Part shown: positions 4,316 to 30,344 of the stretch, one piece after another | How positions within the stretch are numbered: position 1 is the stretch's first letter | How the letters are laid out: every line of letters starts with the position of its first letter | Assembly (NCBI RefSeq): GCF_002214165.1 | Contig: NZ_CP019964.1 | Location: 420,001-452,000 of the forward strand | Direction of reading: 5' to 3' | Length of the DNA: 32,000 nt | DNA from: Candidatus Saccharimonadota bacterium | GTDB taxonomy: Archaea > Micrarchaeota > Micrarchaeia > Micrarchaeales > Micrarchaeaceae | Notes under the pieces: generated by a model | What the model was told of the DNA's origin: nothing | Database searches by the model: none | What the model saw: the letters and a program-made list of their open reading frames with translations, nothing else | Position numbers and translations under genes: made by a program

Positions 4316-4558
4316 TAATATTTATATATATGCATATTTAAATATAAATATGTATTAATTAGTTACATAATAGTTACATTTATAAAACTCATTTAAATCT
4401 CTTTGTTTATTATTTACAAAATTTTATTTAGCTGTCTGAAATAGCATATTTACATTTATTTTTCATATATAATTATAGATATTTGGAGCACCCCGGAATT
4501 TCGGACGAGGTATGCTCCGCCTAGCAGAATTTCGTCGCGAATTTCCTTCTAAGGGCTT

Positions 4559-6475
4559 TCAACCAAAATTAGATTTTGTTATCTCCCCGTACTTTTTATT
4601 CCCTATTTTTTTCTTTAATTCCGACGCTGCCTGCTCTTCGAGATCCATCATTGAATAATCTGCGTTTTCATCCGCTGCATTGCTTATATCATCGAGCATT
4701 GAGATTAGCTCCTTCCTAAGGCCTATTAGCTTGCCTTTGCCCGTATCGCTAAAACCATTGTACAACTCCGCATCGGATATTAAGCCGGATCTAGCACTCA
4801 TCTCCCTGCCAAAGATGTATTCCGCATAATCAAATGCGGAGTTCCTTATGGCATTGAAGAAGATGTAAGCCTTTACCGAATCTATATACGTATTGATGAG
4901 CTCGCTTAAATCCTTAGACCTCTTGTAATTGCTATATGATGCCTTGGCACTTTCATAATGCTTGGCCATATTGCTCTTTGCTTCATTGTAAGCTGACCTA
5001 AATTTGGCGGAATTTCTTTCGTCCAATGCCTTGACGAATGCTTCCTTGAAACGCTTTATGCCATCGACCTTCGCATTGATGCTCCTGAATAGCAGCCAAT
5101 ATGAGGTATAAACATCTGAGGGTCCGGATAGTTTTATAAGATTCGGTAAGCCTTTATTAAATGCCTCTTCGATACTTCTGTCGTCATCCAAATACAATAT
5201 TGCAAATCTGCCTGATCTCCTAATCAAACCATTAGCTTCATTAAGGTATTCTATGTTCTTTATGCCCTTGTGGATCCATTTGAATGTTCTGGGGGCTGTA
5301 TTCATTATTTGGGCAAGCCTTCCATCATTGCCTTTCACCTTGATCACTCCTGTGCTGCCATCCATATATACCTCTTTTGAATTAAGCAGCTTGCCAAAAT
5401 CATTCACTCCTGTAATGTACGGTATTTTAAGCTCCCTTGCGAGTATGCTCACATGGGACAGCATCCCATCATACCTTGAGATTATGCCTGCCACATTCTT
5501 ATTATCCAAGTATTTGATATCGCCTAATTCCACTTCCTCCTTTATAATTATAACAGGGCTTTCGGGTATGTTCCTTATATCTTCCCACGGAATGCCTTTG
5601 CCTATCCCGGCAGATACAGGTATATCGCCCATATTATCCTCAAACTTAAGCTTAGGCAAATCGGATGTTATCGGCCTTGACTGCAGGATAAAAATATCGT
5701 TTCCTTTTATGCACCATTCAACATCTTGCGGGGAATTGAATATCCTGTATATCTTTATGGCTTCTTTTACAAGCTTGTGTATCTCGCTGCTGAGCAATTT
5801 CCTGGAATAGGAAACCTCCATAGGCAGCTTCCTATCGTGTCCTTTGACGTTGGCATACAACTGGAAATTCACGGTTATGCCTGGAGTTGATTTCTTTTTG
5901 GTTAAATCTATTTTATACAAGTCTCCAACTTCCTTTCCGGAGACAAACCTCTCTCCTTGGCCTATTATCGCATTTATTATTACAGCATCTTTGGTTACGA
6001 AAAGGACACCCGATTTCTCCGAGTCTATCTGCTTCTGTATCACTACTGCCATCTTTGGATGTTCGCTGCTGTATCCAAAATCTTTTATCCTGTAAAGGGA
6101 TGCGTAAACATCTTTTACGGATTTTGGCAAATTCCCTTTGGTTACGAAAAGATCCGTTTTGAACTTTCCTGCATAACTGTATTTTGATGAATCCTCCACC
6201 GTTGCCGAACTCCTGACTGCGACCTTTCCCTTCTTTATGTATTTAGAATATGATTCCATTACTTCATTAATTATTTCCTTTGGCAATTCTATATTTGTTT
6301 TAGATCTTTGGTTAGCTTTTATATAGGAATCAAATGCGTTTGCATTTAGTATAAAAAATTCCGGTACTCTTATGCCTTCTTTCTTAAGCTTTAGCAATGA
6401 GTATCCTTTTCCGCCAACAATATTGGGATTCAGGGCCCCTTCAGAAATTATGTATTGGCTTTTCATAGAGAACAT
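4559..6475 (-). CDS. PEP-utilising enzyme / pyruvate,water dikinase-like protein (PPDK_N ATP-grasp + phospho-His swivel domain + unknown helical C-terminal domain)
   Basis: N-terminus GGKGYSLLKLK...VAVRSSATVEDSSKYSYAGKF (PEP/pyruvate-binding ATP-grasp). Mid region VAGIISRYDGMLSHVSILARELKIPYITGV (mobile-domain phospho-His motif). The last ~250 aa are helical with no TIM-barrel motifs. A TATA-like tttatata sits just upstream, so the start may be Met4 (6466). Confidence 0.85.
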   Translation of the reverse strand: MFSMKSQYIISEGALNPNIVGGKGYSLLKLKKEGIRVPEFFILNANAFDSYIKANQRSKTNIELPKEIINEVMESYSKYIKKGKVAVRSSATVEDSSKYSYAGKFKTDLFVTKGNLPKSVKDVYASLYRIKDFGYSSEHPKMAVVIQKQIDSEKSGVLFVTKDAVIINAIIGQGERFVSGKEVGDLYKIDLTKKKSTPGITVNFQLYANVKGHDRKLPMEVSYSRKLLSSEIHKLVKEAIKIYRIFNSPQDVEWCIKGNDIFILQSRPITSDLPKLKFEDNMGDIPVSAGIGKGIPWEDIRNIPESPVIIIKEEVELGDIKYLDNKNVAGIISRYDGMLSHVSILARELKIPYITGVNDFGKLLNSKEVYMDGSTGVIKVKGNDGRLAQIMNTAPRTFKWIHKGIKNIEYLNEANGLIRRSGRFAILYLDDDRSIEEAFNKGLPNLIKLSGPSDVYTSYWLLFRSINAKVDGIKRFKEAFVKALDERNSAKFRSAYNEAKSNMAKHYESAKASYSNYKRSKDLSELINTYIDSVKAYIFFNAIRNSAFDYAEYIFGREMSARSGLISDAELYNGFSDTGKGKLIGLRKELISMLDDISNAADENADYSMMDLEEQAASELKKKIGNKKYGEITKSNFG

Positions 6476-6582
6476 TAATATATTATATAAAAGTTTATTA
6501 ATTTTAACCTTGAAGAATTTTTATATTCTCTAACGGTATATGTAAATAAATTTGTAATTTATAAAAATAAAGGATTGATAAA

Positions 6583-6936
6583 ATGGGCAAGCTTAATGCC
6601 TCTGAAAATATAGACTACATCAAGCCTTTGAACAGTTATGCTGAACCAAATGAGGTTGGAGGAAAGGCCTATAACCTTATGAAACTTTCTCATGCTCATT
6701 ATAATACTGTAGTGGGATTTGCCATAACCACAGAAGTATATAGGTATTGGAAGAAAAACGGGAAATTGCCAAAAGAGTTCTTCGATAAACTTAATGAATA
6801 CCTGAAATGGTTCAGTTACGGTATGAAATTCCCTGTTATAGTAAGGAGTTCAGCTACAGTAGAAGATGCCAAAAAAGCAAGCTTTGCAGGATTATTCGCC
6901 TCCTATCCTAATGCAAACTCAATATTAGATAGGGTA
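6583..6936 (+). pseudogene. Truncated N-terminal fragment (~118 aa) of a PpsA-like paralogue
   Basis: EVGGKAYNLMKL...FPVIVRSSATVEDAKKASFAGLF parallels residues ~20-105 of the intact gene 4559..6475. Similarity stops near 6936. The remaining ORF tail to 7062 overlaps the fic 3' end and looks non-coding. Confidence 0.7.
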
Positions 6937-6961
6937 TTATTTACAGATTCAAATACAGCAA

Positions 6962-8143
6962 CTATTTATATTGTTCTTTATATATCTCCCTTATCCCTTT
7001 TGCAACAAACAGCTGATTCCTTGCCTTGCCTGTTTCTAATGGCTGTATTACACCTTCCTTGATAAGGTTATCAATAGCTCTTTTTGCAGTTGGATAGGTA
7101 ACATTTAGTATGTGTGATGTCGTATTTGCACTTATGATATAGGAAGCGAACAGCTGCTGAAAAAGTACATATGTTGACTTGCTGTACTTTTCTTCTATAT
7201 CCTTGCCTTTCTCATTATAATACTGGCTTAATTTGCTTATCTTGTCCAATACTATTTTAGATTGCGATATCGCTCCGATTAAAAAGAATTTTAGCCATTC
7301 TGAATAAGTTGAATTTTTGCTTATATCCCTGAGAAGCGAATAATATGCACTTCTGTTCTTCTCAAAGTAATCGCTCATATATAATAATGGGAGCTTTAAG
7401 GCCTTATTCTTTATCAGGTAAAGTATCAGCAAAAGCCTGCCTATCCTTCCATTGCCATCCAAAAATGGATGTATCGCTTCAAATTGGTAGTGCATAAGTG
7501 CAATTTTAACCAATATGGGATCATTGCTGCTATCCATATAATCAAGCATATTGGCAAGCAGCTCTTTTACCCTCTCTGGAGGTGGCGGTATGTAGGTTGC
7601 GTACTCTATGCCTATAGCGTTTTGATAATGCGAAATATAGTTCTGCACTTCCCTTATAGATCCTGGCTTTGCTTTCTCACCCCTGACATGCTGCAGCAGT
7701 ATTGAATGCAGTTTGGTTATCAGCTGCAAATCTATAGGTATTTGCTCGTTCATAAGGTTTATTCCTATTTCCTGGGCTTTTATATAATTCCTAACTTCCA
7801 ATATGTCATTCCTTTTCTCTTCGTCCAATATCTTTTGGCCTGCCTGCTCCTTGAACATGTCATCAAGGTTGCTCAAAGTGCCTTCTATCCTTGAGCTTTC
7901 AACAGCCTCGTTTTCAAGCTGCGGCCTTATGAACAGGTTTACATTATTGTGCAATACCTTATTTAGCTCAATTCCCGCACCATCCAATCTACCAAGCCAA
8001 GTGCTGGCCTCCGATAGTAATCTCAATAGTTCATTATCGTAATCTATCTTTACTGGAAGATTATCAGGTACGAATGTATAATATTGATTAGCACTATCGG
8101 GAAGAAGCTTGCCAGAAGGATTTTTAAATTCTTCAATATCCAT
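6962..8143 (-). CDS. Fic family protein (class II, N-terminal inhibitory helix, C-terminal wHTH-like domain)
   Basis: Canonical Fic motif HPFLDGNGRIGRLL. Upstream S-x-x-x-E-G inhibitory motif in VESSRIEGT. TAG stop. Confidence 0.9.
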   Translation of the reverse strand: MDIEEFKNPSGKLLPDSANQYYTFVPDNLPVKIDYDNELLRLLSEASTWLGRLDGAGIELNKVLHNNVNLFIRPQLENEAVESSRIEGTLSNLDDMFKEQAGQKILDEEKRNDILEVRNYIKAQEIGINLMNEQIPIDLQLITKLHSILLQHVRGEKAKPGSIREVQNYISHYQNAIGIEYATYIPPPPERVKELLANMLDYMDSSNDPILVKIALMHYQFEAIHPFLDGNGRIGRLLLILYLIKNKALKLPLLYMSDYFEKNRSAYYSLLRDISKNSTYSEWLKFFLIGAISQSKIVLDKISKLSQYYNEKGKDIEEKYSKSTYVLFQQLFASYIISANTTSHILNVTYPTAKRAIDNLIKEGVIQPLETGKARNQLFVAKGIREIYKEQYK

Positions 8144-8170
8144 TTTATCATTTAACTTTTAAAATAAAAC

Positions 8171-8310
8171 CTTTAAAATCTTTCTTTTTTATTAAAGTTT
8201 TTAAGTATTTCCTTTAATAAGTATTGCATTTATTAAAGATTTTCTCAATTTTCTTTAATAACTGATGTTCTTGTTAAAGGTTTCTTTAATAACTAAGGGC
8301 TTTATTAAAG
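8171..8310. promoter_or_regulatory. Array of four 27-bp inverted-repeat sites (CTTTAATAA-N9-TTATTAAAG) in the divergent fic/vapB intergenic region
   Basis: Sites at 8171-8197 (imperfect left arm ctttaaaat), 8212-8238 (perfect), 8253-8279 (1 mismatch) and 8284-8310 (perfect). Start-to-start spacing is 41, 41 and 31 bp. A separate 7-bp-arm palindrome tttccaa-catt-ttggaaa lies at 8313-8330. Confidence 0.6.
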
Positions 8311-8428
8311 ATTTTCCAACATTTTGGAAATCTATTGTTCTTCCAATTTAGAATAAGCAGATGATCTACTTAATGTATACATACGTAATACATAAATATA
8401 TTTTTGGTATACATAATACCGTGAGCAA

Positions 8429-8656
8429 ATGACAGAGGATACTGCAATTATAACAGTGAGAGTGCCTAAAAAAGTAAAAATTGCCATGAATAAAGCAAAC
8501 ATAAATATCAGTAAAGAGATTAGGGATTACTTAGAGGCAAAAACAAGGTCTCTTGAATTATATGCCTTACTTCCAGAAATCTCTAAAAGAGCAAAAAATA
8601 GGAAAGTGACACTAAATAGCACTAGAATAATAAGAAAATATCGTGATTCCAGATGA
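8429..8656 (+). CDS. vapB: VapB-type antitoxin (ribbon-helix-helix-like)
   Basis: 75 aa. N-terminal ITVRVPKKVKIAM is typical of an RHH beta-strand. ATGA overlap with the downstream PIN gene. Confidence 0.7.
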   Translation: MTEDTAIITVRVPKKVKIAMNKANINISKEIRDYLEAKTRSLELYALLPEISKRAKNRKVTLNSTRIIRKYRDSR

Positions 8657-9069
8657 TGGTATTGGATGCCTCTGCAATTGTAAAACTAATTATAAATGAA
8701 TCTGAATCTGATTTTGTAAGGAAAAAAGTTGTATCAGAAGCAAAGAAAAGTGAACCTATTTATACACCAGATATCGCTTTGGCCGAATCTTTAAATGTCA
8801 TATGGAAGTATTCCAGCTTAAAAAGCCAAAATAACATCAATCAATATAAATTATTATCAGATCTGATGCTCTTATGGAATACCTTAACCGTTGTAAATAC
8901 AGCTACATTAGCCTCTTTAGCTATGAAAATTGCGGTAGATAATAAAATAACAATTTATGATGCATTATACGCAGCATTGAGTAAATTGGAAAATGCTCCT
9001 TTATTAACTTTTGACAAATACCTTAAAAGCAAAGCAACTGATATAGAAATAAAAGTAGTTACAATATGA
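8653..9069 (+). CDS. vapC: PIN-domain ribonuclease toxin VapC
   Basis: 138 aa. N-terminal MVLDASAIVKLIINE (first acidic PIN residue), later acidic residues, and size and context match VapC. Confidence 0.8.
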   Translation: MMVLDASAIVKLIINESESDFVRKKVVSEAKKSEPIYTPDIALAESLNVIWKYSSLKSQNNINQYKLLSDLMLLWNTLTVVNTATLASLAMKIAVDNKITIYDALYAALSKLENAPLLTFDKYLKSKATDIEIKVVTI

Positions 9070-9101
9070 ATCTTAATAGGTTATTTTTATTTTGAAGATG
9101 A

Positions 9102-9440
9102 TTACAACTGAAATTCCAAACTTTTATAGTCCTCTATTAGCCATTTCCATATTGGGACTAACTTTATTTTCCTTTTTATGCTTGTTGTATCCTCTATATA
9201 TCATTTTATTATAATTAAATTTCCACAATTCTGCTCAATGCTGGCTTTTACCAATGAATTGGTTTCCCTTTCTTTAATCTCATCGATTGACGATGCATAA
9301 GTTACCTGTATCAATGAATTCGTTTTGTCCTATTTCCTTAATAAGAAATCTATCTCCATGTTTGGTGCACTCTTCCAATATATCCGAAACGATAACTGTA
9401 TCAGGCCTTTTCTTTAATATTTCTTATTATTACTAACTTT
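9102..9440 (-). pseudogene. Decayed C-terminal remnant of a DUF4143-type ATPase paralogue
   Basis: The minus-strand translation gives [72 protein letters not shown]. The intact-looking copy at 24229..24666 reads [66 protein letters not shown]. The remnant has TGA in place of Trp plus an upstream frameshift. Confidence 0.7.
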
Positions 9441-9503
9441 TAATTATTTTATAATTATTAAATAATATTAAATAATTAATTAATATTTTAATTTAAAACA
9501 TTA

Positions 9504-10292
9504 TTATTTTAAAAGCGCTAGCAGGTAGCTTTTGACTTCGTTGTAATCTGGCGGGTTCCTTACCAGCCTGGACATTTCAGAATCCCACACCTTTCCTACA
9601 ATCTCTATTTTCTCTTTCAATCTCTCTAATGAAAATTCTTCATTATCTGTCCTGCCATAAAGTTGCATCTTTTTGCCGACAAGTTCAAGATTTGGCTTGG
9701 TATCGTATTTCCTGCACAGTATCCACGAATCGTACATATCCCTAGCTACCGGCTCCGTTCTCTCCATCAATGCTTTTATCTTGTCCGCCAACAGCTCGTT
9801 AACATCGAGCGAATTGATTATATAGGAAGGTATATCAGAATATATAGGCATCCTTGGCATATGCTTAACATCCATCATAGGTCTTTCAAATAGATTCATA
9901 TCTAAACCCAATGTTTGCACTGATTGCGGATTATTGGATATTGCATATAAAGGGCCCTTTATTTTAATCGTGTATTTTAACATATTCTTGTATTTTTCAA
10001 CTTTGAAATTTGCGTTGTACTGTAAGTTAATGCCTTTTATTGCCCTATTTATTAATTTTTTGATAACCTCAACTTCAGTAGGATTTTGTAATATGAAATC
10101 AAGGTCCTCTGAAAACCTTCCAGAGCCATACAATTTGGATATTGCCGTTCCTCCTCTAAATATTATATTTGTTGACCTATTGAATATTTGATATAGCATA
10201 AGCTCCTGTAAATAGTCTTTTTCGGCATCTTGTGTTTTAGGGAATCCGAGCCTATCCGCATAGGCCCTCCATTCTTTTGTCTCGTCTATCAT
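9504..10292 (-). CDS. abiEii: AbiEii/AbiGii-family nucleotidyltransferase toxin (type IV TA / abortive infection)
   Basis: Motif FRGGTAISKLYGSGRFSEDLDF is characteristic of the AbiEii NTase family. It follows the AbiEi-like gene directly (1-nt gap). Confidence 0.88.
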   Translation of the reverse strand: MIDETKEWRAYADRLGFPKTQDAEKDYLQELMLYQIFNRSTNIIFRGGTAISKLYGSGRFSEDLDFILQNPTEVEVIKKLINRAIKGINLQYNANFKVEKYKNMLKYTIKIKGPLYAISNNPQSVQTLGLDMNLFERPMMDVKHMPRMPIYSDIPSYIINSLDVNELLADKIKALMERTEPVARDMYDSWILCRKYDTKPNLELVGKKMQLYGRTDNEEFSLERLKEKIEIVGKVWDSEMSRLVRNPPDYNEVKSYLLALLK

Positions 10293-10293
10293 A

Positions 10294-10911
10294 TTATGAC
10301 CTAAATTTGATTTCTTTTACTTCTTTTTCAATTTTATTTATCTTTTCTTTTAGGTCCTTTGAGCCTATCCTCTTTATATATGATGAAAGCCTGCCTTTTT
10401 CAAGGATCCTTGATTCTTTTGCGTTTTCGTATGCTTCTTCTATATACGGAATCGGTAAATTGCCTATCAAAATTGCATCTATGATCGCTTTCTCAACATA
10501 TGCCACGAATGTGCCATCCTCTTTTGAGCGGTAGAACCCGAACATAAGCCTTCTTGGTATTTTGGTAAATATTATATTGTAACCTCCTATGCTAATGCCA
10601 TTGCTATGCCTTGCATCTGTCAATATATCAATTGCCGACAGGTTCTGCGTCGTTATCCCATAGTACTTGAACGCAGACATCATGCTAACATATGAAGGGT
10701 ATATTATATTGGATGCCACTGCATAAGGATTAGCATCTTTAAGATAATACTTGCCTTTTTCAATTCTTGAAATCTCTCCTCTATTTAACAATCTTGACAG
10801 GTAAAGCGATGTATATTTGATATCTTTATTCACAATCATTGAAGCTTCCTTAGTACTAAAAACAGGGATATTTAATGACTTTATCTCCTTTATAAATTGT
10901 AATTGATTCAT
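10294..10911 (-). CDS. abiEi: AbiEi-family antitoxin / transcriptional regulator
   Basis: 205 aa with an N-terminal wHTH-like segment (FSTKEASMIV...SLYLSRLLNRGEISRIEKGKYYL). Position upstream of abiEii. Confidence 0.75.
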   Translation of the reverse strand: MNQLQFIKEIKSLNIPVFSTKEASMIVNKDIKYTSLYLSRLLNRGEISRIEKGKYYLKDANPYAVASNIIYPSYVSMMSAFKYYGITTQNLSAIDILTDARHSNGISIGGYNIIFTKIPRRLMFGFYRSKEDGTFVAYVEKAIIDAILIGNLPIPYIEEAYENAKESRILEKGRLSSYIKRIGSKDLKEKINKIEKEVKEIKFRS

Positions 10912-16330: not shown

Positions 16331-16711
16331 TTAAGGCATTTCTAGGGAGCCCTTCAGATTTTGGAATAAACCGGAAATCTGGTCAATAATATCTTTATTA
16401 TCCAAATTGTACTCTTTAGATATTTGAGCGTAGTCTTTATATATAACGTAGCACCTTTTATTCTGCTCAATAATTAATATCTTCAATGGCAGTTCTATCC
16501 CCAATTCCGCATTTTTCTTCATAAGGATAGTCCCACCTTTGGCATTTCCGAATATGATAAGTTTGGAATTTATAAAATCCAATCCGGCATCCTTGGCGTT
16601 TTTACCATGATCCACGACACAGAATATTGTGAATCCTTTGGAATTTAAAAAATTTGTGATATTGTCAAAAGTACCTTCAAAATCATATTTGCTCTCAATT
16701 CTTACGTTCAT
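16331..16711 (-). CDS. DUF302 domain protein
   Basis: FTIFCVVDHGKNAKDAGLDFINSKLIIFGNAKGGTILM...LPLKILIIE matches the DUF302 pattern. I trimmed the tracked ORF (16831) to Met41 (ATG 16709-16711) because the upstream part overlaps the arsR promoter and start. Confidence 0.8.
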   Translation of the reverse strand: MNVRIESKYDFEGTFDNITNFLNSKGFTIFCVVDHGKNAKDAGLDFINSKLIIFGNAKGGTILMKKNAELGIELPLKILIIEQNKRCYVIYKDYAQISKEYNLDNKDIIDQISGLFQNLKGSLEMP

Positions 16712-16751
16712 TTTAACCAATATGAAAATGAAAAAGAAAAGTTTAATAATA

Positions 16752-16773
16752 CATATGATAAATTTATCATATG
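16752..16773. promoter_or_regulatory. Perfect 22-bp palindrome CATATGATAAATTTATCATATG in the DUF302/arsR divergent promoter (candidate ArsR-type operator)
   Basis: Read directly from the sequence. It overlaps the first candidate ATG of arsR (16771); a second in-frame ATG is at 16780. Confidence 0.6.
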
Positions 16774-17154
16774 ATAAAAATGTCATATAATAAACTTGAT
16801 GATCAATCCATTTCACTATTCTTTGGGGCAATAGCCAATCCCAAAAGATTTAGGATACTGGTAACACTAAATGAAAGAGGGCCAATGTGTGTTTCCCAGC
16901 TTGAAGAACTCCTTGGCATAGAGCAGTCCGATCTTTCGCATAACCTGCAGTGCCTGCTCAATTGCAGGTTTGTCAACAGGGAGCAGAGGGGAAAGGAGAA
17001 GGTCTACAGCTTAAACGAAGACATGAAGGTATTGGTTGATTCGATAAATAGCCATATAGAGGCTTATGACAGGTATATCAAATCATGCGAAATTGTAAAT
17101 GATAAAAATTTGGTCAAAGGCGTTGATAATGGAAAATTATCAAATTTGGCGTAA
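16771..17154 (+). CDS. ArsR/SmtB-family metalloregulator (likely mer-operon regulator)
   Basis: LFFGAIANPKRFRILVTL...MCVSQLEELLGIEQSDLSHNLQCL...VYSL is a typical ArsR wHTH. It lies directly upstream of merA on the same strand. The last 4 codons and the stop are supplied by the IS left end (see findings). Confidence 0.85.
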   Translation: MIKMSYNKLDDQSISLFFGAIANPKRFRILVTLNERGPMCVSQLEELLGIEQSDLSHNLQCLLNCRFVNREQRGKEKVYSLNEDMKVLVDSINSHIEAYDRYIKSCEIVNDKNLVKGVDNGKLSNLA

Positions 17155-17156
17155 AA

Positions 17157-17177
17157 CCCACACGCTTCAGCGGTGGG
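17157..17177 (+). repeat. IS left-end subterminal hairpin
   Basis: cccac-a-cgc-[ttca]-gcg-gtggg: 5+3 bp stem with an A bulge and a 4-nt loop. Confidence 0.7.
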
Positions 17178-17220
17178 ATATAAGCCACCGCAACAGTAGA
17201 AATAATTAGTATAAATAAAT

Positions 17221-18441
17221 ATGATCGTCATGAAAACTGCATACAAATATCGTGCATATCCTTCAAAGGAACAGAAGGGAACTCTGAATAGACAGATGTA
17301 TCTTTCAAAGGAACTATACAACCTGCTTCTTGAAAAGTCAAAGTCATACTATAATGAGACAGGAAAAACCTTAACGGAATTCAGGATGAACGTTTGGATA
17401 ACCAAATTAAAGAAGGAAAAACCGGAATTTGCGGAAATCCATTCTCAGGTGCTTCAGAATATCTCAAAAAGGGTGTCAGATGCATACAAACATTTTTTCT
17501 TGAGGTGCAAGGAGAAGAAGCAAGGAAAGAAGGTAAAGGCGGGATTTCCAAGATACAAGAAGTTCGTATCATCTTTGACATATCCTCAAACCAATGGCTT
17601 CAAGATAGAGAAGAAGAAGGTTGAACTTTCAAAAATAGGGAGGATAAATTTCGTGAACCACAGAAATATTGAAGGAGGAATAAAAACATTAAATATAAAG
17701 AAGACAAAATCACAGGAATGGTACATCACGATTGCTGTTGAAAAGGAGGACAAGCCATTCATTTCAAACGGTAAACCGAAGGTTGGTATTGATTTAGGAA
17801 TAATGCAATATGCCGCGCTTTCGGAAAATACAATACTCCAAAACGCAAAGATAACAAAACACCAGAGGAAACATTCAAGAGTCCTTCAACAAAACATATC
17901 GAGGAAAGAGAAGGGATCATCCAACAGAAGAAAGGCAGTGACAAGATTTGCAAGATACTCAGAGCATATTTCAAGGATAAGATTGGATTGCATACACAAG
18001 CTTTCAAATGAATTGGTGAATTCTTATTCATTCATTGCATACGAAGATTTAGAGATAAACAATATGGTGAAGAACCACAGATACGCAAAATCGATAAGTG
18101 AATCTTCTTGGGGAAATTTCACACAATTGCTGCAATACAAGGCTGAAAGCGCTGGTTGCGTGGCAATGAAAGTGAATCCTCAATACACATCAATGACATG
18201 CAGCAAATGTGGCAATGTGCAAAGCATATCGATATCCCAAAGAACATTCGTCTGCGAAAAGTGCGGGATGTCAATGGACAGGGATGTGAATGCGGCACAG
18301 AATATACTAAAGAGAGCTTTGAACTCCATCAGTCCAACTACCGAAGGGCATTCGGGAAGTCAAGCCTGCAGAGACGACATAAGACCTTCCGCAAGGGGGG
18401 CAGTTGCCTATGAAGCAGGAACTATATGGGTGGCATCATGA
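17221..18441 (+). CDS. tnpB: TnpB (OrfB) RNA-guided endonuclease of IS200/IS605 family
   Basis: N-terminal YKYRAYPSKEQ. RuvC triad contexts VGIDLG, IAYEDL and DRDVNAAQNI. Zinc finger CSKCG...CEKCG. Confidence 0.93.
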   Translation: MIVMKTAYKYRAYPSKEQKGTLNRQMYLSKELYNLLLEKSKSYYNETGKTLTEFRMNVWITKLKKEKPEFAEIHSQVLQNISKRVSDAYKHFFLRCKEKKQGKKVKAGFPRYKKFVSSLTYPQTNGFKIEKKKVELSKIGRINFVNHRNIEGGIKTLNIKKTKSQEWYITIAVEKEDKPFISNGKPKVGIDLGIMQYAALSENTILQNAKITKHQRKHSRVLQQNISRKEKGSSNRRKAVTRFARYSEHISRIRLDCIHKLSNELVNSYSFIAYEDLEINNMVKNHRYAKSISESSWGNFTQLLQYKAESAGCVAMKVNPQYTSMTCSKCGNVQSISISQRTFVCEKCGMSMDRDVNAAQNILKRALNSISPTTEGHSGSQACRDDIRPSARGAVAYEAGTIWVAS

Positions 18442-18517
18442 CGACAAATCATAACCACCTTGGAAGCCCACACTGTTTACAGGTGGGAGGATGTCACGAT
18501 TACATAATAATAGGGCA
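18330..18517 (+). ncRNA. Predicted TnpB omega RNA (reRNA): scaffold over the tnpB 3' end and RE, plus a ~20-nt guide read into merA
   Basis: By analogy with characterised TnpB systems. Extra stem ggtgg(18429-18433)/ccacc(18454-18458) plus the RE hairpin. The 5' limit is a guess and no expression data are available. Confidence 0.3.
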
Positions 18518-19898
18518 AGGAGCTGCTGCATTCTCCGCCGCCATAGAAGCCAATTCATTAGGGGCAAGGACATTGATGATTGGCAAGAACGAGACGGAAG
18601 GATCGCTCCTCGGTGGCACTTGCGTCAATGTTGGGTGCGTGCCAAGCAAGAGGCTTATCACGGTGGGGGAGTTCATCGATGATGTAAGGAAATCCAGATA
18701 TTACGGCGTTGATGCAGATGCAATCGTGGATTACTCAAAAGTGGTAGCGGAAAAGGACAAGCTTGTAAGCGGGATGAGATCCAAAAAGTACAAGGAGGTA
18801 CTGGACAAGCTTGCCAATGTTGATTTCGTAGATGGATTCGGTTCGTTAGGGGACTCTCATACCGTAATCGCCAATGGCAAGGAATACCATTCCAACCATA
18901 TACTTATAGCAACTGGAGCAAGGGCTTACATCCCGAGTATAAAAGGATTGGAAAGCATAAATCCACTGACCAACGAAGAAGCTCTTTCATTGAAAGACCT
19001 TCCCAGATCATTGATAATAATAGGGGGCAGGGCGATGGGGCTTGAATTCGCGCAGATGTTTTCGCATTTTGGCTCAAAGGTCACGGTCCTGCAGAGAAGC
19101 GGCACCATAATACCTGGATGGGAGCCCGTGCTGATAAGCAAGCTTGCCAATTATTTGAAGGATGACGGCATATCGGTAAACACCAATACTGCGATAAACG
19201 AAGTTGGGAAAGATGGCGGTGAAGAGTTTGTCAAGGCATCGGTAAACGGCAAGGAGGCAATATTCAAGGCCGAACGCATAATGTTTGCAACAGGAAGGCA
19301 GCCGAATGTAGAAAAGCTAAACTTGGGCGCAATCGGCTTGAAGACCGATGAAAAAGGGTTCATACAAATAAACAGCAAAATGGAAACAAACGTGCCCGGG
19401 ATATATGCGGCAGGCGATGTTACAGGAGAGCCAATGCTAGAGACTCTCGCAGGCAAAGAAGGTAAGATAGCGACGGACAACATGTTCACAAGGAATACCA
19501 AAGAGATAGATCTTAATGAAGTGCCACAGGCGATCTTCACGATGCCAGAGGCAGCGATGGTCGGATTGACAGATGACCAGGCACACGGGAAGGGGATAAA
19601 GTGCAGCTGCAATTCAATACCTTTTTCGATGATCCCCAAGGCCTCGATAATCGGGGATGAGAGAGGTGTCATAAAGGTTGTAATAGACTATGCAACCAAG
19701 CGCATATTAGGAGTCAGCATACTTTCTAGGAATGCGGCGGACTTAATAGCCGAAGCCACTTTGGCGGTGAAGTTCAAGCTTACAATAGATGACATCATAG
19801 ATACGGTGCACGTGTTTCCGACACTGAGCGAAGCGTTCAAGCTCGCATCGCAGAACTTCTACCAGGATATATCGAATATGAGCTGCTGCACAGCATAA
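18426..19898 (+). CDS. merA: Mercuric reductase MerA (core enzyme, no NmerA domain)
   Basis: DYIIIGQGAAAF (FAD fold), redox-active GGTCVNVGCVPSK, and a C-terminal vicinal Cys pair NMSCCTA diagnostic for MerA. Start is uncertain (ATG 18426, ATG 18438 or GTG 18483); all three lie inside the IS right end. Confidence 0.9.
   Translation: MGGIMTTNHNHLGSPHCLQVGGCHDYIIIGQGAAAFSAAIEANSLGARTLMIGKNETEGSLLGGTCVNVGCVPSKRLITVGEFIDDVRKSRYYGVDADAIVDYSKVVAEKDKLVSGMRSKKYKEVLDKLANVDFVDGFGSLGDSHTVIANGKEYHSNHILIATGARAYIPSIKGLESINPLTNEEALSLKDLPRSLIIIGGRAMGLEFAQMFSHFGSKVTVLQRSGTIIPGWEPVLISKLANYLKDDGISVNTNTAINEVGKDGGEEFVKASVNGKEAIFKAERIMFATGRQPNVEKLNLGAIGLKTDEKGFIQINSKMETNVPGIYAAGDVTGEPMLETLAGKEGKIATDNMFTRNTKEIDLNEVPQAIFTMPEAAMVGLTDDQAHGKGIKCSCNSIPFSMIPKASIIGDERGVIKVVIDYATKRILGVSILSRNAADLIAEATLAVKFKLTIDDIIDTVHVFPTLSEAFKLASQNFYQDISNMSCCTA
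18467..18487 (+). repeat. IS right-end subterminal hairpin
   Basis: cccac-a-ctg-[ttta]-cag-gtggg: same architecture and feet as the left-end hairpin. Confidence 0.7.
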
Positions 19899-19909
19899 GG
19901 TGAAGATCT

Positions 19910-20440
19910 TTGATTGGTTCGGCATTGAAATTTGTTTACAGCGAAAAACGCTATCTCCTATCAACCATAGCTATTGCAATCCTTATGGGTGCCCTTTATT
20001 ACTATTTAGTCCATATTGGAGGGCTATTCTACCCTATAATATTCGGCTCTATAGCGCTTGGCGAAATAACTGATATAGCAGGGTTCGCCTTGATATCCGT
20101 GTTGATGGGAATATCAATATCAATGCAGATATACTCCTATAAATTGACAAGATTGGACGATTCAAAGGGCGAGACTGCGATCGCGGTGATAACAGGGGTT
20201 TTTGCGCAAGGGCTATGCTGCACCCCGATAGTGGGAAGCCTCTTGGCCATGCTTGGGCTGTCAACATCTGCCTTGCTAACACTATCCGGCGCTATAAGCC
20301 ATACCTTTGCAGTGCTTGAGCCTATCCTGATAATCGCATCCATATTGCTCCTTCTTTACAGCATAAGGTCAACGGCAAAATCCCTGCTTTACTGCAGCAA
20401 GAGGGAGCTAAAGATTTCGCAAAAGACAAAAGGCGGATAA
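19910..20440 (+). CDS. Polytopic membrane protein with intramembrane vicinal cysteines (GLCCTPIVG); candidate Hg(II) transporter-like protein
   Basis: 4-5 predicted helices. The CC-x-P motif inside helix 3 resembles the MerT/MerF/MerC CCxxP signature. TTG start 11 nt after the merA stop. Confidence 0.65.
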   Translation: MIGSALKFVYSEKRYLLSTIAIAILMGALYYYLVHIGGLFYPIIFGSIALGEITDIAGFALISVLMGISISMQIYSYKLTRLDDSKGETAIAVITGVFAQGLCCTPIVGSLLAMLGLSTSALLTLSGAISHTFAVLEPILIIASILLLLYSIRSTAKSLLYCSKRELKISQKTKGG

Positions 20441-20441
20441 A

Positions 20442-21011
20442 ATGAAAAAGGTAAAAACTTTGTATAAACTAATGGCAATCGTGGTGATAATTGCGGCGGC
20501 CGTACTGCTGTACATGTATTCGGCAGGCACGTTTTCGCATAAAGTGTCCGCGGAAATCCTTTCCGCCGGAGAAAAGGCCCCAAATGAAAGCTTCACTCTG
20601 CTGAATGGGTCAACCGTGAATATAGGCAATTACCGAGGTAAGCCAATACTTGTCTGGCTTATGACCACTTGGTGCAGCTCCTGCGCCCAAAGCACATCGA
20701 CAATAGCGAATAATATGACCTTCTTCAAAGACCACAATGTAACAGTCTTTGAAATTGAAAATTACGAGGATCTTGGCCAAAGCGGCATGGCAATAGGCCC
20801 GTTTATAGATTATTATGCGCATAATTCGACAGGAGCGGATATGATAAAAGGAGGAATATCGTCAAAAGGGCTTACATTCACTTACAACCCTAAAGGATAT
20901 CTTGACATATACTACCTCATAGCCCCAAACGGAACAATCTATTATATAAATGGGAGCCCGGTGATAACGATGAATGATTTGAAGCAGGAGGTAACAAGGC
21001 TGGAGAGCTGA
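20442..21011 (+). CDS. Membrane-anchored thioredoxin-fold protein (TlpA/ResA/redoxin-like, WCxxC)
   Basis: N-terminal anchor LMAIVVIIAAAVLLYMY. GKPILVWLMTTWCSSCAQ active-site motif. The start lies 1 nt after the preceding stop. Confidence 0.8.
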   Translation: MKKVKTLYKLMAIVVIIAAAVLLYMYSAGTFSHKVSAEILSAGEKAPNESFTLLNGSTVNIGNYRGKPILVWLMTTWCSSCAQSTSTIANNMTFFKDHNVTVFEIENYEDLGQSGMAIGPFIDYYAHNSTGADMIKGGISSKGLTFTYNPKGYLDIYYLIAPNGTIYYINGSPVITMNDLKQEVTRLES

Positions 21012-24232: not shown

Positions 24233-25693
24233 GTGCTGAAATCAACGCTTTTGTGGTCCTCCGTAAGCCACTTCCATATAGGGACCAGCTTTATTTTTTT
24301 ACCTTTTATGCTTATCTTATCCTCTATATCCCAGGTTATTATTATTAAATTTTTACAATTCTGCTCGGTGCTTGCTTTTACCAAAGAATTGGTTTCCCTT
24401 TCCTTAATCTCATCAATTGATGAAGCATAAGTTACCTGTATCAAAGAATCTGTCTTGCCATCTTTTCTAAGCAAGAAATCAACTTCCAAATCTGAAGCAT
24501 CCTTCCAATAATACAATGAATAATTATTATTCCAATACTTGATTCTCCTCATCAATTCAACAGCGACTACATTTTCCATCAACCTTCCTTTGTCCTCCTT
24601 GCTCTTGAAATTTACAGCACATGCTATTCCAGTATCTGTAACATATAATTTCCTTGGCGCTTTCATGCTCTCTTTGAGCTTTGCTGAGAACCTTTCAATT
24701 CTGACATCATCCCACGATTAAATATCGTGGGCTTTCTGCTATGCATTTTGTAAATATAAGATAGGAATTTGAGATATAACTTACCCATTTGCTTATCGTG
24801 TTTGGTGTTTTCATGCCAACTATATTTTTTAGCTTGTTGTAAGTTATTTCATTTGAAAAGTTGGATAGAAGGTAATCTGAGAGCAATTTAAATTCGCTTG
24901 GATAACTGATTGAATATCTATGAGGGACATCTCTCTGAATTATATCTGAGTATAATTGCAATAGGTAATTGCTGCCTTCAACTAGAGCTAATGGAATGCC
25001 TCCTATCTGCATGTACTCCTGCAGGCTATCAATGATCTTTGAATGCCATTCACTCGTATATCTTTTCGTTTTTATATCAAATGATTTGTAATCTAGAAAT
25101 TCCTTAAAACTAAATGGGAATAATATAAAATCTATATGCCTGCCAACAAGATATGTAGCTAACTCTTTGTTCATTAGCCTTGCATTGCTGCCTGTTATTA
25201 TAACTTTTTTAGATATTGAGATTGAATTTACAAATCTCTCCCATCCTTATATGTTCTGTATTTCATCAAATATTATATTTTCAGTATTGCTATTCAATTA
25301 GTACATAGCTTCCAATACCTGATTTAGATCTTCAGCCTTTATGGAAATCCCAGGATCATCAAAATTTATATAAGAAAACTTACCTTCTGAGAATATCAAT
25401 TCCGCCAGTACCGACTTGCCGCACCTTCTTATCCCTGTTATTATCCCCACAATACCGTTTCCAAGTAAATTTTCATTTATCGACAGATAACTTTTTATTA
25501 TATGCCCTGAGAGCAGTTTATTAATTGATTCGTTCTGATCCGCAATAACTCTTACAATGATATCCTTAGGCACTATGATAATGTTATAGGTATAAATTTT
25601 TAATAATCTTTGTAGCGGCATTGCAAAGATTAGATAAAATATTTGTATTGACATTACTAAGATTGATAAGATTGTATGTATTATACCATACAT
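24229..25693 (-). pseudogene. AAA ATPase with DUF4143 C-terminal domain, disrupted (two in-frame TAA stops plus one frameshift)
   Basis: Walker A GIITGIRRCGKS. IIFDEIQNI*GWERFV has its stop at 25247-25249, and a further stop lies at 25298-25300. ...ITGSNARL...GRHIDFILFPFSFKEF. A frame change near 24706-24745 precedes RFSAKLKESMKAPRKLYVTDTGIA. The likely original start is ATG 25621. Confidence 0.8.
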
Positions 25694-27188: not shown

Positions 27189-30100
27189 TCAGGGTGCTAC
27201 GAAATACTGCTCTTTCCTTAGTAAGCTTGTTTCTATATGCTCTGCAAACACATCATTTCCAAGCTTCTTGATGGAGATTGTTTTTTTGTTGAACCCCGCA
27301 TTGCCAATCACATCATTTACCCACTCCCTGTTTGATACACGCCCCGTATTGATTACCACAGGGACATTGAAGTGCTTTGCAAGATCCTTAATCATTTCTG
27401 GAAGTGCCTTTTGTACTTCTATCCCTGGATAGAATGAAGAGAGGAACTCAAGCGAATCTATGAAAAGCATGGGCTTTCCGTCAACCTCCGCCGCAAAGCA
27501 GTATGTCCTTCCTATTGGCTGAGGTACATCCTCAAGCTTCTCCTTCCAGTAGAAGTTCAGTATCAATGTCGCAGGATCCTTTACCCATCTAAAGTTTGCA
27601 TCGAAGTGGATTCCCGAATAATCACTTTCGTTCGGTGGGGCTGTGCAGTCTCCGCTGTACCTGCCCCCGAATATATCATCCAGTGACCTTTTCCAGCTCT
27701 TTATGGTGAGTACTCCTGCAGTTGGCAGGGATTTGTCAAGCTTTTCCGAATCCTCGGATATTGTATTGAGGTATAAACCGAACAGCATCCTTCTTCCAGG
27801 CGAGTCCACGATGAACATGTCAGGATCAGTCATGTATTGGTATATATTGCTCAGCGCCTCGTCCGCCTTCTTTATATATAATTCCATTTCCTCTTTTGGC
27901 ATCTCCGCCCCTTCCATTAACGACCTCCTCGCTTCCTCCAATGCATTTTCCTGATCGCCTATCTTCTCCCTGTAATATTTGGATGCCATTACACCTTCAA
28001 CGGCATTTAGGATCCTCCCGTATGAGTATAGGGCATCGCCTTTGTTCTCATCCGCAATGTTGTTAATGTCTTTTTCAATTTTTTTCAGGCCTTTTGCAAG
28101 GAATATTGCCTTTTGGAAATTGACACTTTCGGGGTTGTCATCAATATCAGATTTTCCGACAATATAGTCGATCCTGCTGCGTAGGCCTCTTCCAACGCTA
28201 TTTCTGAGGGACGCAAGTTCGGTTTGGATTTGCCCCAGTGCCTGTGGTACGTCAACCGCATTTTCAGGAAAAACCCCTTTTATGATGCTTATAGAATCGG
28301 AGATTATTTTACTGGTCTCTTCTCTTGTGAGCTCTTCAGTTTTCTTTTCCTGATGAAGATCATATGTCTTAATATACTGTTTGTTGAATTCTGGCAATAA
28401 GCTATCTATATGTTTGAATTCATCGATGTGCAGTTCACTCGGGTTGCTTCTTCTTTTCAATGACTCGACCAAAAATTCAGGGGTGAACATATTCTTGTTT
28501 TCCCAAACAAGTCTCAGAATCTTTATCCCTCCCCACCCTTCAACAGATTTTGGCAAACCCTTGAGGTTATTGAAATAGGAATTTGCCCCATTTACTATTA
28601 TATTGTCTATTTTCCCTTTTTCTCCTGAGAACAAGGTTTCAAAATCCTCTTTTGTTTTGATGAAATTGGATGCAATAGATAGGTACTCTACGGACCCTCC
28701 CGTCCTGCTGTAAAGTTTCACTATCCTGTCAAATTTTGCTTCGTCAATGCTGCCTAGATTACCATTTTCTATAGTTTCGAGGTTTTTTATTAGATTTGAC
28801 CATCCTAGCACTTCAGCTTTAAACCTATTGGGGTCTTTAGATGCGTTCTCAAATTTGATAAGCCTAATAATTGGATCTTCCAAGAAAGTAAGGCCTTTGT
28901 TAAGATTATGGTTATCCGAATAATATAGTATATTAGCTATTCCCGTTAAGATATCCATAAAATCGTTCATGGTATATGAATCCTTTAGCCATGAAAGAAA
29001 TACTTCATCAGTTAGCTCTTTGGCAGCCTTTGTCTTTCTTATCGCACGGAAGTATTCGAAGGAAGCATTATAGCCAACATACCTTGCAAAGTCCCTTACC
29101 CGTTCACTGGTGAGCTCCGCGACTGCCTTTGTCATACCTATCGCATAGAAGTATTGATAGGAAGAGTCTCCACCAATCGAATCTACAAAATTTGTTATTG
29201 TCTCGTTGATGACTTCACCGCTTGTGAGCTCAGCGACTGCCTTTGAGTCGGCCATTGCACGGAAGTAGCCATATACATTATTGTTGCCTAATGAAATTGC
29301 AAAGTCCCTTACTCTTTTGCTGGTGAGTTCCTTTACGGCTCTAGTCATGCCGATCGCATAGAAGTATCTATTTGAACCATAACTGCCTATGGATTTTATA
29401 AAATTTACCGTTCCTTCATTTACGACTTCACCGCTTGTGAGCTCCGCGACTGCCTCTGTGTACCCTATCGCATTGAAATATTCCGAAGCGGAAGTTCTTC
29501 CTATCAGATTGATGAAATCTGCTATCCTTTTGCCGATAACCTCTTTGCTGGTGAGCTCCTTGACGGCTTTGGTGCTTTCTATTGCACTGAAATATTTATC
29601 GATATTGCTTCCGAGAGACTTTGCAAAGTCTATTACTTCACCGCTTGTGAGCTCCTTGACGGCTTTCGTCTTTCCTACTGCTCCAAAATATTCATATCCA
29701 AAACTGTTATTGGACAGATTTATGAAATCTGCTATTCTCCTATTGGCAATTTCCTCACTGGTGAGCTCCGCGACTGCCTTGGTGCTGCCCACTGCATAGA
29801 AATATTTATCGACGTTTATGCCGATTAATTTTGCAAAATCAAAAACTCTTTTGCTAGTGAGCTCCTTTACGGCCTTGGTGGTCCCAACCGCATTGAAGTA
29901 TTCAAAATTGGAATAATTACCTATTAGATTTATGAAATCTGCAGTTTTCTTATTGGTGAACTCCTCGCTTGTGAGCTCCTTGACTGCCTTTGTATTTTCG
30001 ATTGCATAGAAGTATCCGTAGGAATTATTTACACCGATTGAATTTGCAAACTTCATTGTCCTTTCGCTGGTGAGCTCCTTGACGGCCTTGGTGCTCCATA

Positions 30101-30344
30101 TTGCATGGAAGTATCTATATCTAGTGTCTCTTTGGTCTAAAGACTCGACAAAGTCTAGAATCTCGGATAACCTCTTATCCGCTTCACTTGGATCAAAATT
30201 TTCCTTAAGGTAATCCGTAATCAGTTTAGCGGTATCGTTATCACTTAATCTGGATAAGCCGGCAATTTTTGCATTGGTATCATCTAATAATTGCCTTTCG
30301 GTAAAGCCATCATTTATTTTGGTTTTATTCTTGGGCATTTTCAT
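27189..30344 (-). CDS. Large (1051 aa) cytoplasmic tandem-repeat protein: 11 helical repeats + ~350-aa helical middle + ~250-aa C-terminal alpha/beta domain of unknown function
   Basis: No signal peptide or TM helix and no P-loop. Repeats have the core YFxAIxxTKAVKELTS. The C-terminal region contains FGGRYSGDCTAPPNESDYSGIHFDANFRW and GKPMLFIDSLEF. Confidence 0.8.
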   Translation of the reverse strand: MKMPKNKTKINDGFTERQLLDDTNAKIAGLSRLSDNDTAKLITDYLKENFDPSEADKRLSEILDFVESLDQRDTRYRYFHAIWSTKAVKELTSERTMKFANSIGVNNSYGYFYAIENTKAVKELTSEEFTNKKTADFINLIGNYSNFEYFNAVGTTKAVKELTSKRVFDFAKLIGINVDKYFYAVGSTKAVAELTSEEIANRRIADFINLSNNSFGYEYFGAVGKTKAVKELTSGEVIDFAKSLGSNIDKYFSAIESTKAVKELTSKEVIGKRIADFINLIGRTSASEYFNAIGYTEAVAELTSGEVVNEGTVNFIKSIGSYGSNRYFYAIGMTRAVKELTSKRVRDFAISLGNNNVYGYFRAMADSKAVAELTSGEVINETITNFVDSIGGDSSYQYFYAIGMTKAVAELTSERVRDFARYVGYNASFEYFRAIRKTKAAKELTDEVFLSWLKDSYTMNDFMDILTGIANILYYSDNHNLNKGLTFLEDPIIRLIKFENASKDPNRFKAEVLGWSNLIKNLETIENGNLGSIDEAKFDRIVKLYSRTGGSVEYLSIASNFIKTKEDFETLFSGEKGKIDNIIVNGANSYFNNLKGLPKSVEGWGGIKILRLVWENKNMFTPEFLVESLKRRSNPSELHIDEFKHIDSLLPEFNKQYIKTYDLHQEKKTEELTREETSKIISDSISIIKGVFPENAVDVPQALGQIQTELASLRNSVGRGLRSRIDYIVGKSDIDDNPESVNFQKAIFLAKGLKKIEKDINNIADENKGDALYSYGRILNAVEGVMASKYYREKIGDQENALEEARRSLMEGAEMPKEEMELYIKKADEALSNIYQYMTDPDMFIVDSPGRRMLFGLYLNTISEDSEKLDKSLPTAGVLTIKSWKRSLDDIFGGRYSGDCTAPPNESDYSGIHFDANFRWVKDPATLILNFYWKEKLEDVPQPIGRTYCFAAEVDGKPMLFIDSLEFLSSFYPGIEVQKALPEMIKDLAKHFNVPVVINTGRVSNREWVNDVIGNAGFNKKTISIKKLGNDVFAEHIETSLLRKEQYFVAP
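29004..30113 (-). repeat. In-frame tandem coding repeats (11 units of 32-33 or 38 aa)
   Basis: Repeat starts (YF) fall at residues 78, 111, 149, 181, 219, 251, 289, 327, 360, 398 and 431. At DNA level there are recurring gtgagctcc(t/g)(t/c)gac(g/t)gc blocks. Confidence 0.85.

Follow-up and report, generated by a model that had tools for sequence, protein, structure and literature searches.

A probable TnpB-only IS200/IS605 insertion sequence at the arsR/merA junction of the archaeon Candidatus Mancarchaeum acidiphilum

We analyzed a 32,000 nt stretch of DNA (the window) from Candidatus Mancarchaeum acidiphilum (Mia14), a Micrarchaeota/ARMAN-related DPANN archaeon from the acid streamers of Parys Mountain whose 952,257 bp genome forms one contig. 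A segment of 1357 bp (17141 to 18497, plus strand), delimited by blastn similarity to other copies, separates arsR from merA in this genome, and the product of the merA open reading frame (ORF) is identical (100%) to the 'heavy metal reductase' of the same organism. We are highly confident that this segment is a non-autonomous, TnpB-only insertion sequence (IS) of the IS200/IS605 family (IS1341-type) lying at the arsR/merA junction, for which peel-and-paste transposition and a TnpB ribonucleoprotein (RNP) would be expected. The insertion point is 3´ of a TTAT within the 14 nt overlap of arsR and merA in a conserved arsR-merA-membrane protein-redoxin operon, and the genes run in the order DUF302 (minus strand), arsR, tnpB, merA, a 176 aa membrane protein gene, and a redoxin gene. 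An earlier interpretation made from the letters alone (the sequence-only reading) had placed such an element on the arsR stop and merA start; its coordinates all proved correct against the sequence, and its placement is supported by the shared ends, the protein domains, and an orthologous operon. No other copy of the element was found within the 32 kb window. The Mia14 genome paper (PMC5498576) makes no mention of transposases, IS200 or mercury, and is silent on the Micrarchaeota IS family described here.

The limits of the element follow from copies elsewhere. A TnpB protein scan of one genome per species, in which the source genome was not among the results, gave 32 loci, nearly all in Micrarchaeota metagenome-assembled genomes, with TnpB relatives of 37-87% protein identity. 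When the window was compared to these loci by blastn, every copy whose left end is complete showed similarity from 17137 onward, and in nearly all copies that have a right end the similarity stopped at 18497, to within a few bases attributable to chance. In the alignment of left ends (12 related copies and the window, 13 in all), the flank is followed by TTAT and then by C/A-A-A...GGCGTAAAA-CCCAC. The 20 right ends, window included, all terminate at the same base; 18 of them read ...GGAGGATGTCAC up to the flank, with one base different in each of the other two (loci L018 and L023), and the terminal tetranucleotide is TCAC in 19 and CCAC in L018. The flanks of the ~20 related copies are entirely unrelated to one another, and a 95%-identical copy at a different locus, L039 from a JGI metagenome, has identical limits. 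Since the copies share their ends amid unrelated flanks, we consider the termini 17141 and 18497, and the length of 1357 bp, to be established; the expectation that the termini of other copies would coincide with these positions was borne out by the ~20 copies. A metagenome scan with the left-end core yielded 70 further loci (71 occurrences), with TTAT always 16-18 nt before the hairpin. The element family is widespread in acidophilic Micrarchaeota.

Hairpins were found at both ends, as the sequence-only reading had described for the segment bracketing the intact tnpB, and they recur in the other copies with covariation. On the left, the TTAT at 17137 to 17140 (plus strand), which is the insertion target, the left cleavage site and the predicted transposon-associated motif (TAM), is present in 13 of 13 aligned copies and lies 16 nt 5´ of a subterminal imperfect palindrome (IPL, CCCAC-A-CGC-TTCA-GCG-GTGGG, 17157 to 17177, plus strand); an ATAT directly 3´ of this hairpin (17178-17181, plus strand) is invariant in the left-end alignment. 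On the right, the corresponding palindrome (IPR, CCCAC-A-CTG-TTTA-CAG-GTGGG, 18467 to 18487, plus strand), which is also the last predicted omega-RNA stem, is followed by TCAC (18494 to 18497, plus strand), the right cleavage site and the final 4 bases of the element, ending 10 nt 3´ of the hairpin. The left hairpin has 95% of its alignment cells paired, a value reached in 0 of 500 shuffles, and one covarying pair (columns 28/35; TA, CG and GC), and the right hairpin, counted as helix 6 below, has compensatory changes at 6 of its 8 pairs. As a caveat, the lowest-energy single-stranded DNA fold of the left end in this copy is an overlapping hairpin (17170-17176 with 17185-17191) and not the IPL. 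We rejected this alternative hairpin as a conserved element, given that covariation support for it is absent across the family.

A guide tetranucleotide precedes each hairpin: AAAA on the left (17153 to 17156, plus strand; invariant in the left-end alignment and assigned by the pairing rule of PMC5934647) and GAAG on the right (18463 to 18466, plus strand), found in 16 of the 19 aligned copies, the variants being AAAG in L005 and L009 and GAAA in L012, each with one mismatch. Within the family, AAAA and TTAT are both invariant, and the same 16 of 19 copies have the GAAG/TCAC combination. For IS608 of Helicobacter pylori, the left cleavage site TTAC is 19 nt 5´ of the IPL and the right site TCAA is 10 nt 3´ of the IPR, with AAAG and GAAT as the left and right guides (PMC3201880, PMC5934647), all of which the sequence-only reading had stated correctly; the pairs A+16:T-3 and A+17:T-4 are formed (PMC5934647). 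The Micrarchaeota element resembles IS608 in its subterminal imperfect hairpins with one unpaired base, the 4 nt guide directly 5´ of each hairpin foot, a left cleavage site that is outside the element and is the target, a right site that is the last 4 nt, 10 nt past the hairpin, the AT-rich tetranucleotide that follows the left hairpin (ATAT here, ATAC in IS608), and the lack of a target duplication. It differs from IS608 in the target (TTAT versus TTAC), the right site (TCAC versus TCAA), the guides (AAAA/GAAG versus AAAG/GAAT), the left spacing (16 versus 19 nt), the lack of tnpA, and the archaeal host. According to earlier structural work on IS608, the final position of the guide pairs with the final base of the cleavage site. 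That pair changes from C:G to T:A on the left and from A:T to C:G on the right, and AAAA/TTAT and GAAG/TCAC retain every pair in the IS608 register (T-4:A, T/C-3:A/G), consistent with the earlier proposal that the differences in the cleavage sites (C>T, A>C) are mirrored by complementary changes in the guides. In the aligned sequences, the ends have the IS200/IS605 hallmark of subterminal imperfect palindromes without terminal inverted repeats, and the recurrence of ends, hairpins, and guides in ~20 independent copies with unrelated flanks is, by this comparison, more than chance.

The same ends also delimit elements without tnpB. Mini-elements of 371-385 nt (L053, L082, L095 and L104) are preceded by TTAT and end in TCAC at different insertion sites, and a further one of 155 nt (L064) has the family ends and begins at its own TTAT; at least 4 different sites are occupied in another metagenome, none of them in this window. 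The 371-385 nt elements retain the left end, a 26 nt remnant of tnpB, and exactly the final 161 nt, equivalent to 18337-18497. They resemble the tnpB-less derivatives known as PATE or MITE-like elements in that they have both ends of the family, sit at several TTAT sites, and keep the predicted omega-RNA scaffold. We also noted that the left-end core (GGCGTAAAA-CCCAC-hairpin-GTGGG-ATATAAG beside TTAT) precedes TnpB genes whose products are only ~28-33% identical (L040-L109, for example L042, L045, L047, L076 and L100). Several of these loci are soil or other non-acidic metagenome contigs, and across them the end architecture is far better conserved than the TnpB protein.

Between the ends, tnpB (17221 to 18441, plus strand) encodes a protein of 406 aa, or of 403 aa from the RefSeq start at ATG 17230. 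The Pfam domains HTH_OrfB_IS605, OrfB_IS605 and Cas12f1-like_TNB all score above their cut-offs, the match to NCBIfam guided_TnpB is 274 bits (cut-off 100), and the protein aligns over its full length (residues 4-379, E 2e-55) with the TnpB structures 8h1j/8exa of ISDra2 from Deinococcus radiodurans. The RuvC triad (D191, E275, D355, aligned to D191, E278 and D361 of ISDra2) and both CxxC pairs of the zinc finger (CSKC327 and CEKC345) are intact. The likeness to ISDra2 covers the alignable TnpB with its catalytic D/E/D and zinc finger, and also a predicted RNA scaffold extending over both the 3´ end of tnpB and the right end, a guide taken from the flank, and a TAM that equals the target (PMC8612924), whereas the predicted TAM is of 4 nt (TTAT, versus TTGAT), the Micrarchaeota element lacks tnpA, and its RNA is predicted from sequence, with no Rfam match. 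The Mia14 annotation contains at least six distinct TnpB paralogs that are 95.6-97.8% identical. Given six near-identical paralogs and mini-elements at no fewer than four sites, we regard the family as mobile.

With only 80 nt between the left end and tnpB, a tnpA gene cannot fit within the element, and absence of tnpA is a defining mark of the IS1341 subgroup. Elements of this group, which are common in archaea, likewise have one tnpB/orfB between IS200/IS605-type ends, are present in multiple copies per genome, and presumably are mobilized in trans. A tblastn search with an IS608 TnpA query found nothing in the window or the first 39 loci; over 109 loci, matches were obtained in L041 and L054 only, the former adjoining a distant subfamily of the element. 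In L054 (3846-4221), a Y1 (HUH) tnpA (...DHVHLF...TVERY) is disrupted by an element of the same IS family, whose insertion point directly follows the TTAT in CGT-TAT (Arg-Tyr) codons close to the tnpA C-terminus. Mobilization in trans is the only reasonable reading for the Micrarchaeota element. By analogy to IS608, a Y1 (HUH) TnpA supplied in trans would recognize both subterminal hairpins, and AAAA and GAAG, 5´ of the hairpin feet, would set the cleavage positions by pairing with TTAT and TCAC, after which the top strand would move by single-strand 'peel and paste', as for IS608 and ISDra2. The element has every testable defining feature of a TnpB-only (IS1341-type) IS200/IS605 element, tnpA in cis being the sole feature that it lacks.

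Given the defined ends, the uninterrupted site can be reconstructed. Deletion of 17141-18497 joins ...GATAATGGAAAATTAT to GATTACATAATAATAGGG (over a longer stretch, ...GTTGATAATGGAAAATTAT to GATTACATAATAATAGGGCAAGGA), giving a junction of ATGGAAAATTAT followed by GATTAC; this in silico excision is seamless, with no target duplication and no bases doubled. The deletion reconnects merA with its orphaned native start, ATG GAA AAT TAT (MENY, 17129 to 17140, plus strand), such that the gene reads MENYDYIIIGQGAAAF and encodes a MerA of 470 aa with the N-terminus MENYDYIIIGQG.... At the same time, arsR regains the end ...VDNGKL-TGA, and the two genes overlap by 14 nt (ATGGAAAATTATGA). Among the best 119 non-self MerA orthologs, most are 471 aa long and most start MEEYEYAIIG, MEEYDYVILG, MENFDYAIIG or MERFDYIIIG, an N-terminal pattern of ME-x-[YF]-[DE]-Y-x-I-I-G with the variants MEEYEY, MEEYDY, MENFDY and MERFDY before xIIGQG, and the reconstructed start at ATG 17129 matches this pattern, as had been proposed. 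The protein scores 531 bits against the TIGR02053 MerA equivalog (cut-off 454), with the match beginning at residue 25 of the present ORF, the first residue encoded past the element. The closest MerA ortholog, P0003 (65% identity), is encoded in an operon of arsR, merA, a 166 aa protein gene, and a redoxin gene in the same order, in which arsR and merA likewise overlap by 14 nt (ATGGAAAGATTTGA) and ArsR ends in ..DKNGKI before the stop. This operon bears out both the restored arsR TGA and the restored overlap, and supplies the uninterrupted junction in a related genome that the sequence-only reading had called for. In the remaining orthologous operons, arsR and merA overlap by 4 nt or are 7 nt apart; the orthologous mer operons lack the element. 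By these comparisons, the reconstructed and orthologous junctions agree at the base level.

The right end also is predicted to encode the omega-RNA (right-end element RNA, reRNA) that guides TnpB. The predicted scaffold (18337 to 18497, plus strand) coincides with the 161 nt kept by the mini-elements, which support it independently. In an alignment of the last ~162 nt of 19 copies, RNAalifold returned six helices, among them 18337-45/18351-60, 18373-76/18492-95, 18385-90/18395-400, 18429-34/18454-59 and 18467-75/18480-87 (plus strand), with compensatory changes at 15 of the 34 pairs. The consensus structure has 97.5% of its cells paired, compared to 32-47% with partners slid by 1-3 columns, and 0 of 500 column shuffles reached the observed values. 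Two of the helices are within the tnpB coding sequence (18337-18360 and 18385-18400), that at 18429-18459 encloses the tnpB stop, another is the right hairpin, and a 4 bp long-range helix (18373-18376 with 18492-18495) immediately precedes the predicted guide. Rfam searches, run with gathering thresholds on the entire window and with E ≤10 on 17000-18700, gave nothing meaningful, and thus there is no curated family for the predicted RNA.

For ISDra2, an RNA of ~150 nt from the tnpB 3´ end and right end is followed by ~16 nt of flank as the guide, and the TAM is the transposon target (PMC8612924). Since the architecture here is that described for ISDra2 and the scaffold covaries, we predict the guide to be GAUUACAUAAUAAUAG(GGCA) and the TAM to be TTAT. 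By the ISDra2 rule, the guide would be GAUUACAUAAUAAUAGGGCA (16-20 nt; 18498 to 18517, plus strand), which is also codons 5-11 of native merA; its 16-mer has no further exact copy in the window, where only two sites match with 3 mismatches. TnpB would bind an RNA of ~160 nt from 18337-18497 together with ~16-20 nt of flanking merA sequence and would cut TTAT followed by GATTACATAATAATAG..., the donor joint left upon excision, and homologous repair of the cut joint would restore the element. The occupied site is predicted to be immune, since TCAC and not TTAT precedes the target, and the sole predicted combination of TAM and target would be the excised donor joint. Targeting of the empty donor joint is thought to be common to every TnpB element. 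For this reason the reconstruction, neat as it is, will be expected by specialists.

The insertion has altered both neighboring genes. The arsR-family metalloregulator gene (16771 to 17154, plus strand; Pfam HTH_5, NCBIfam HTH_metalloreg 71.9 bits) now ends ...VDNGKLSNLA-TAA, its final four codons (a gain of SNLA) and stop being encoded by the IS. From merA, its own start and first four codons (ATG-GAA-AAT-TAT) have been lost and the remaining 466 codons are intact, with native coding sequence from 18498; the redox-active CxxxxC (GGTCVNVGCVPSK, CVNVGC) and the C-terminal CC (...MSCCTA) are present in the translation. The ORF is open from ATG 18426, and the gene as annotated (18438 to 19898, plus strand; 486 aa) begins at ATG 18438, the GenBank start, which overlaps the tnpB stop as ATGA just as the sequence-only reading had it. 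Also in agreement with that reading, the usable in-frame starts (ATG 18426, ATG 18438 and GTG 18483) are all inside the right end, and the next ones (TTG 18573 and ATG 18576) would delete the GxGxxA motif for FAD. N-terminal extensions are usual at this point, the long-form MerA (NF010311) having ~100 residues before it. The only run of at least five T residues between arsR and merA is a T6 at 17493-17498, within tnpB, and there is none from 17499 to merA. MerA would most likely be made from ATG 18438 within the right end and would carry an IS-encoded leader of ~20 residues (MTTNHNHLGSPH...), on a transcript reading out of the element from the arsR promoter, the tnpB promoter, or both; the omega-RNA would need the same read-out transcription to include its guide. 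Given the intact codons, the customary N-terminal extensions, the lack of a T-run 3´ of 17498, and read-out transcription, continued expression of merA as an IS-gene fusion is plausible from the sequence. We infer, rather than observe, the leader, the read-through transcription, the translational coupling, and the RNP targeting of the empty site.

It is possible, if distinctly less probable, that the insertion silenced merA by removing its start and regulated promoter context, leaving a young pseudogene whose intact ORF reflects recency. The native ATG and four codons are now 1357 bp away, a convincing ribosome-binding motif is absent before the start candidates inside the element, and these starts sit in the structured predicted omega-RNA scaffold (helix 5, 18429-18459, and helix 6, 18467-18487), which TnpB would be expected to bind and process; the 95.6-97.8% identity of the paralogs is consistent with recent activity. 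Yet merA is intact over its 466 remaining codons, has every MerA signature motif and exceeds the equivalog cut-off, its frame continues open into the element, where an ATG overlaps the tnpB stop, tnpB is joined to merA without a terminator-like T-run, and other copies also lie just upstream of co-directional genes. Somewhat less probable again is that MerA is made from GTG 18483, with the leader MGGCH, or from ATG 18426. All three starts are in frame with no intervening stop, and the product from GTG 18483 would be nearest in length to native MerA, but that codon is in the 3´ arm of the right hairpin without an upstream purine-rich motif, whereas ATG 18438 has the ATGA overlap typical of coupled translation and is the start chosen in GenBank.

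We also considered the idea that the right end is built for read-out, acting as a portable cassette of promoter and start codon that places merA under transposon control through re-initiation after tnpB. In 19 of 20 copies (L002-L039 and the window), an ORF from the ATG at the tnpB stop (MTTNH...) continues without a stop through the final base of the element, and the terminal GTGGGAGGATGTCAC is stop-free in every frame. The read-out ORF is in three different phases across copies, indels in the hairpin causing the shifts. About 15 of the 20 copies have a co-directional open frame of at least 90 codons within ~200 nt downstream, although ORFs were scored here by a crude criterion and in copies that are not independent. 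In L039 the candidate ATG of a GTP_EFTU_D2 gene is 22 nt past the element and the gene caller extended the gene into the right end. The bias toward co-directional genes may be explained by the occurrence of TTAT in promoter sequence that is AT-rich and TATA-like. We consider a purpose-built cassette improbable; if it existed, the element could settle at the 5´ ends of genes, and TnpB binding or processing of the omega-RNA would compete with merA translation on the shared transcript. The same sequences do hint that the right end permits, or even favors, the expression of genes beyond it by read-out. Very unlikely is a domesticated TnpB/omega-RNA regulator of the mer operon in place of a mobile insertion, as for the nuclease-dead TldR: the element does sit between a regulator and a target gene with a guide complementary to the merA 5´ end, but the RuvC triad is intact, both ends are intact with an architecture identical to that of many mobile copies at unrelated loci, orthologous operons lack the element, the occupied site has TCAC and not the TAM TTAT beside the target, and no conserved arsR-tnpB-merA arrangement was found in diverged species.

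Several points weigh against our interpretation of a TnpB-only IS that interrupted the operon and from which merA is still expressed. The 27-mer of the empty site, GGAAAATTATGATTACATAATAATAGG, which would mark an empty allele of the same species, gave 0 exact matches in metagenome contigs, and no MerA more than 65% identical was found outside the Mia14 genome; since a same-species empty allele was not found, the reconstruction rests on the orthologs. The remaining five Mia14 copies are known here from their proteins alone. A Y1_Tnp domain was not found in any window ORF of at least 110 aa, nor was tnpA found in the element, in the 32 kb window, or beside any related copy examined. As a single RNA sequence, the right end folds no better than shuffles (z = -1.0), and because of this support for the predicted omega-RNA was taken from covariation in the alignment only. 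The T6 at 17493-17498 could terminate transcripts from the arsR promoter. The family has a TATA-like box ~25 nt upstream of tnpB, a presumed promoter located by sequence comparison at 17196 to 17204 (plus strand) in this copy, which is GTAGAAATA here, with a T-to-G change, GTATAAATA in L039 (95% identical), and ATATAAAT in the majority of other copies. To judge by the T-to-G change, this copy may have a weaker tnpB promoter, making dependence on the arsR promoter conceivable. Finally, the omega-RNA with its guide, the TAM, the proposed transcription, and the start of translation are all predicted features.

Divergent from arsR is a DUF302 gene (16331 to 16711, minus strand; Pfam DUF302, E 1.4e-13; ATG at 16711), and the region between the two genes contains AT-rich palindromic repeats, CATATGATAAA (repeat family D6, 16746 to 16791, no strand assigned); the repeats, CATATGATAAA(T/A)TT, overlap one another and are partly palindromic. 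From their sequence, they probably form a candidate ArsR operator/promoter region. Downstream of merA, a gene (19910 to 20440, plus strand) encodes a 176 aa multi-pass membrane protein with a vicinal-cysteine GLCCTP motif and no Pfam or NCBIfam match, which is a candidate Hg(II) transporter. Of three orthologous operon types, two (L033 and L036) have the gene for a homolog of 166-170 aa after merA, and the third (L038) has it upstream of arsR. The operon closes with a gene (20442 to 21011, plus strand; Pfam Redoxin) for a Redoxin/AhpC-TSA thiol-disulfide oxidoreductase, and the counterpart of this gene adjoins the 166-170 aa gene in L033, L036 and L038, the pair in L038 being upstream of arsR. 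Without the IS, the mer operon (16771-21011) has a G+C content of 44.8%, which exceeds that of the window (37.6%) and of the IS (39.7%) and is consistent with lateral acquisition of the operon.

Elsewhere in the window, we noted a toxin-antitoxin/defense cluster (3678-10911) with ParE-like (3678-4031), Fic (6962-8143), PIN (8653-9069) and AbiEii/AbiEi (9504-10911) genes, which also contains two PPDK_N ORFs (4559-6475 and 6583-7062); an AbiEii gene is likewise upstream of the orthologous mer operon in L033-L035. A 217 nt repeat with 81% identity is present at 9164-9380 and 24294-24510, its second copy within a 145 aa DUF4143 fragment with an AAA_14 fragment nearby (25298-25693 was noted alongside), which points to copies of an AAA/DUF4143 ATPase gene that have decayed or been split. 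Diverged tandem repeats of ~210 nt (29011-30130, 66-72% identity) are inside a 1051 aa ORF (27189-30344, minus strand) without a Pfam match, which probably encodes a repetitive surface protein.

The Micrarchaeota element is a newly delimited example, in a DPANN archaeon, of an established element type, and its mechanism is not new. It provides for the DPANN (Micrarchaeota) a fully delimited IS200/IS605 family with exact ends, the target TTAT, guide tetranucleotides, a predicted omega-RNA scaffold, and mini-derivatives, and the compact TnpB (403-406 aa) of an acidophile, with its predicted short AT-rich TAM, is a candidate for testing as an editing nuclease. For the host, the annotation of a metal-resistance gene is corrected, in that the annotated 486 aa MerA has an N-terminus encoded by the transposon. 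Metal-responsive control of the operon may have been lost, which bears on resistance inferred from the genomes of acid-mine communities.

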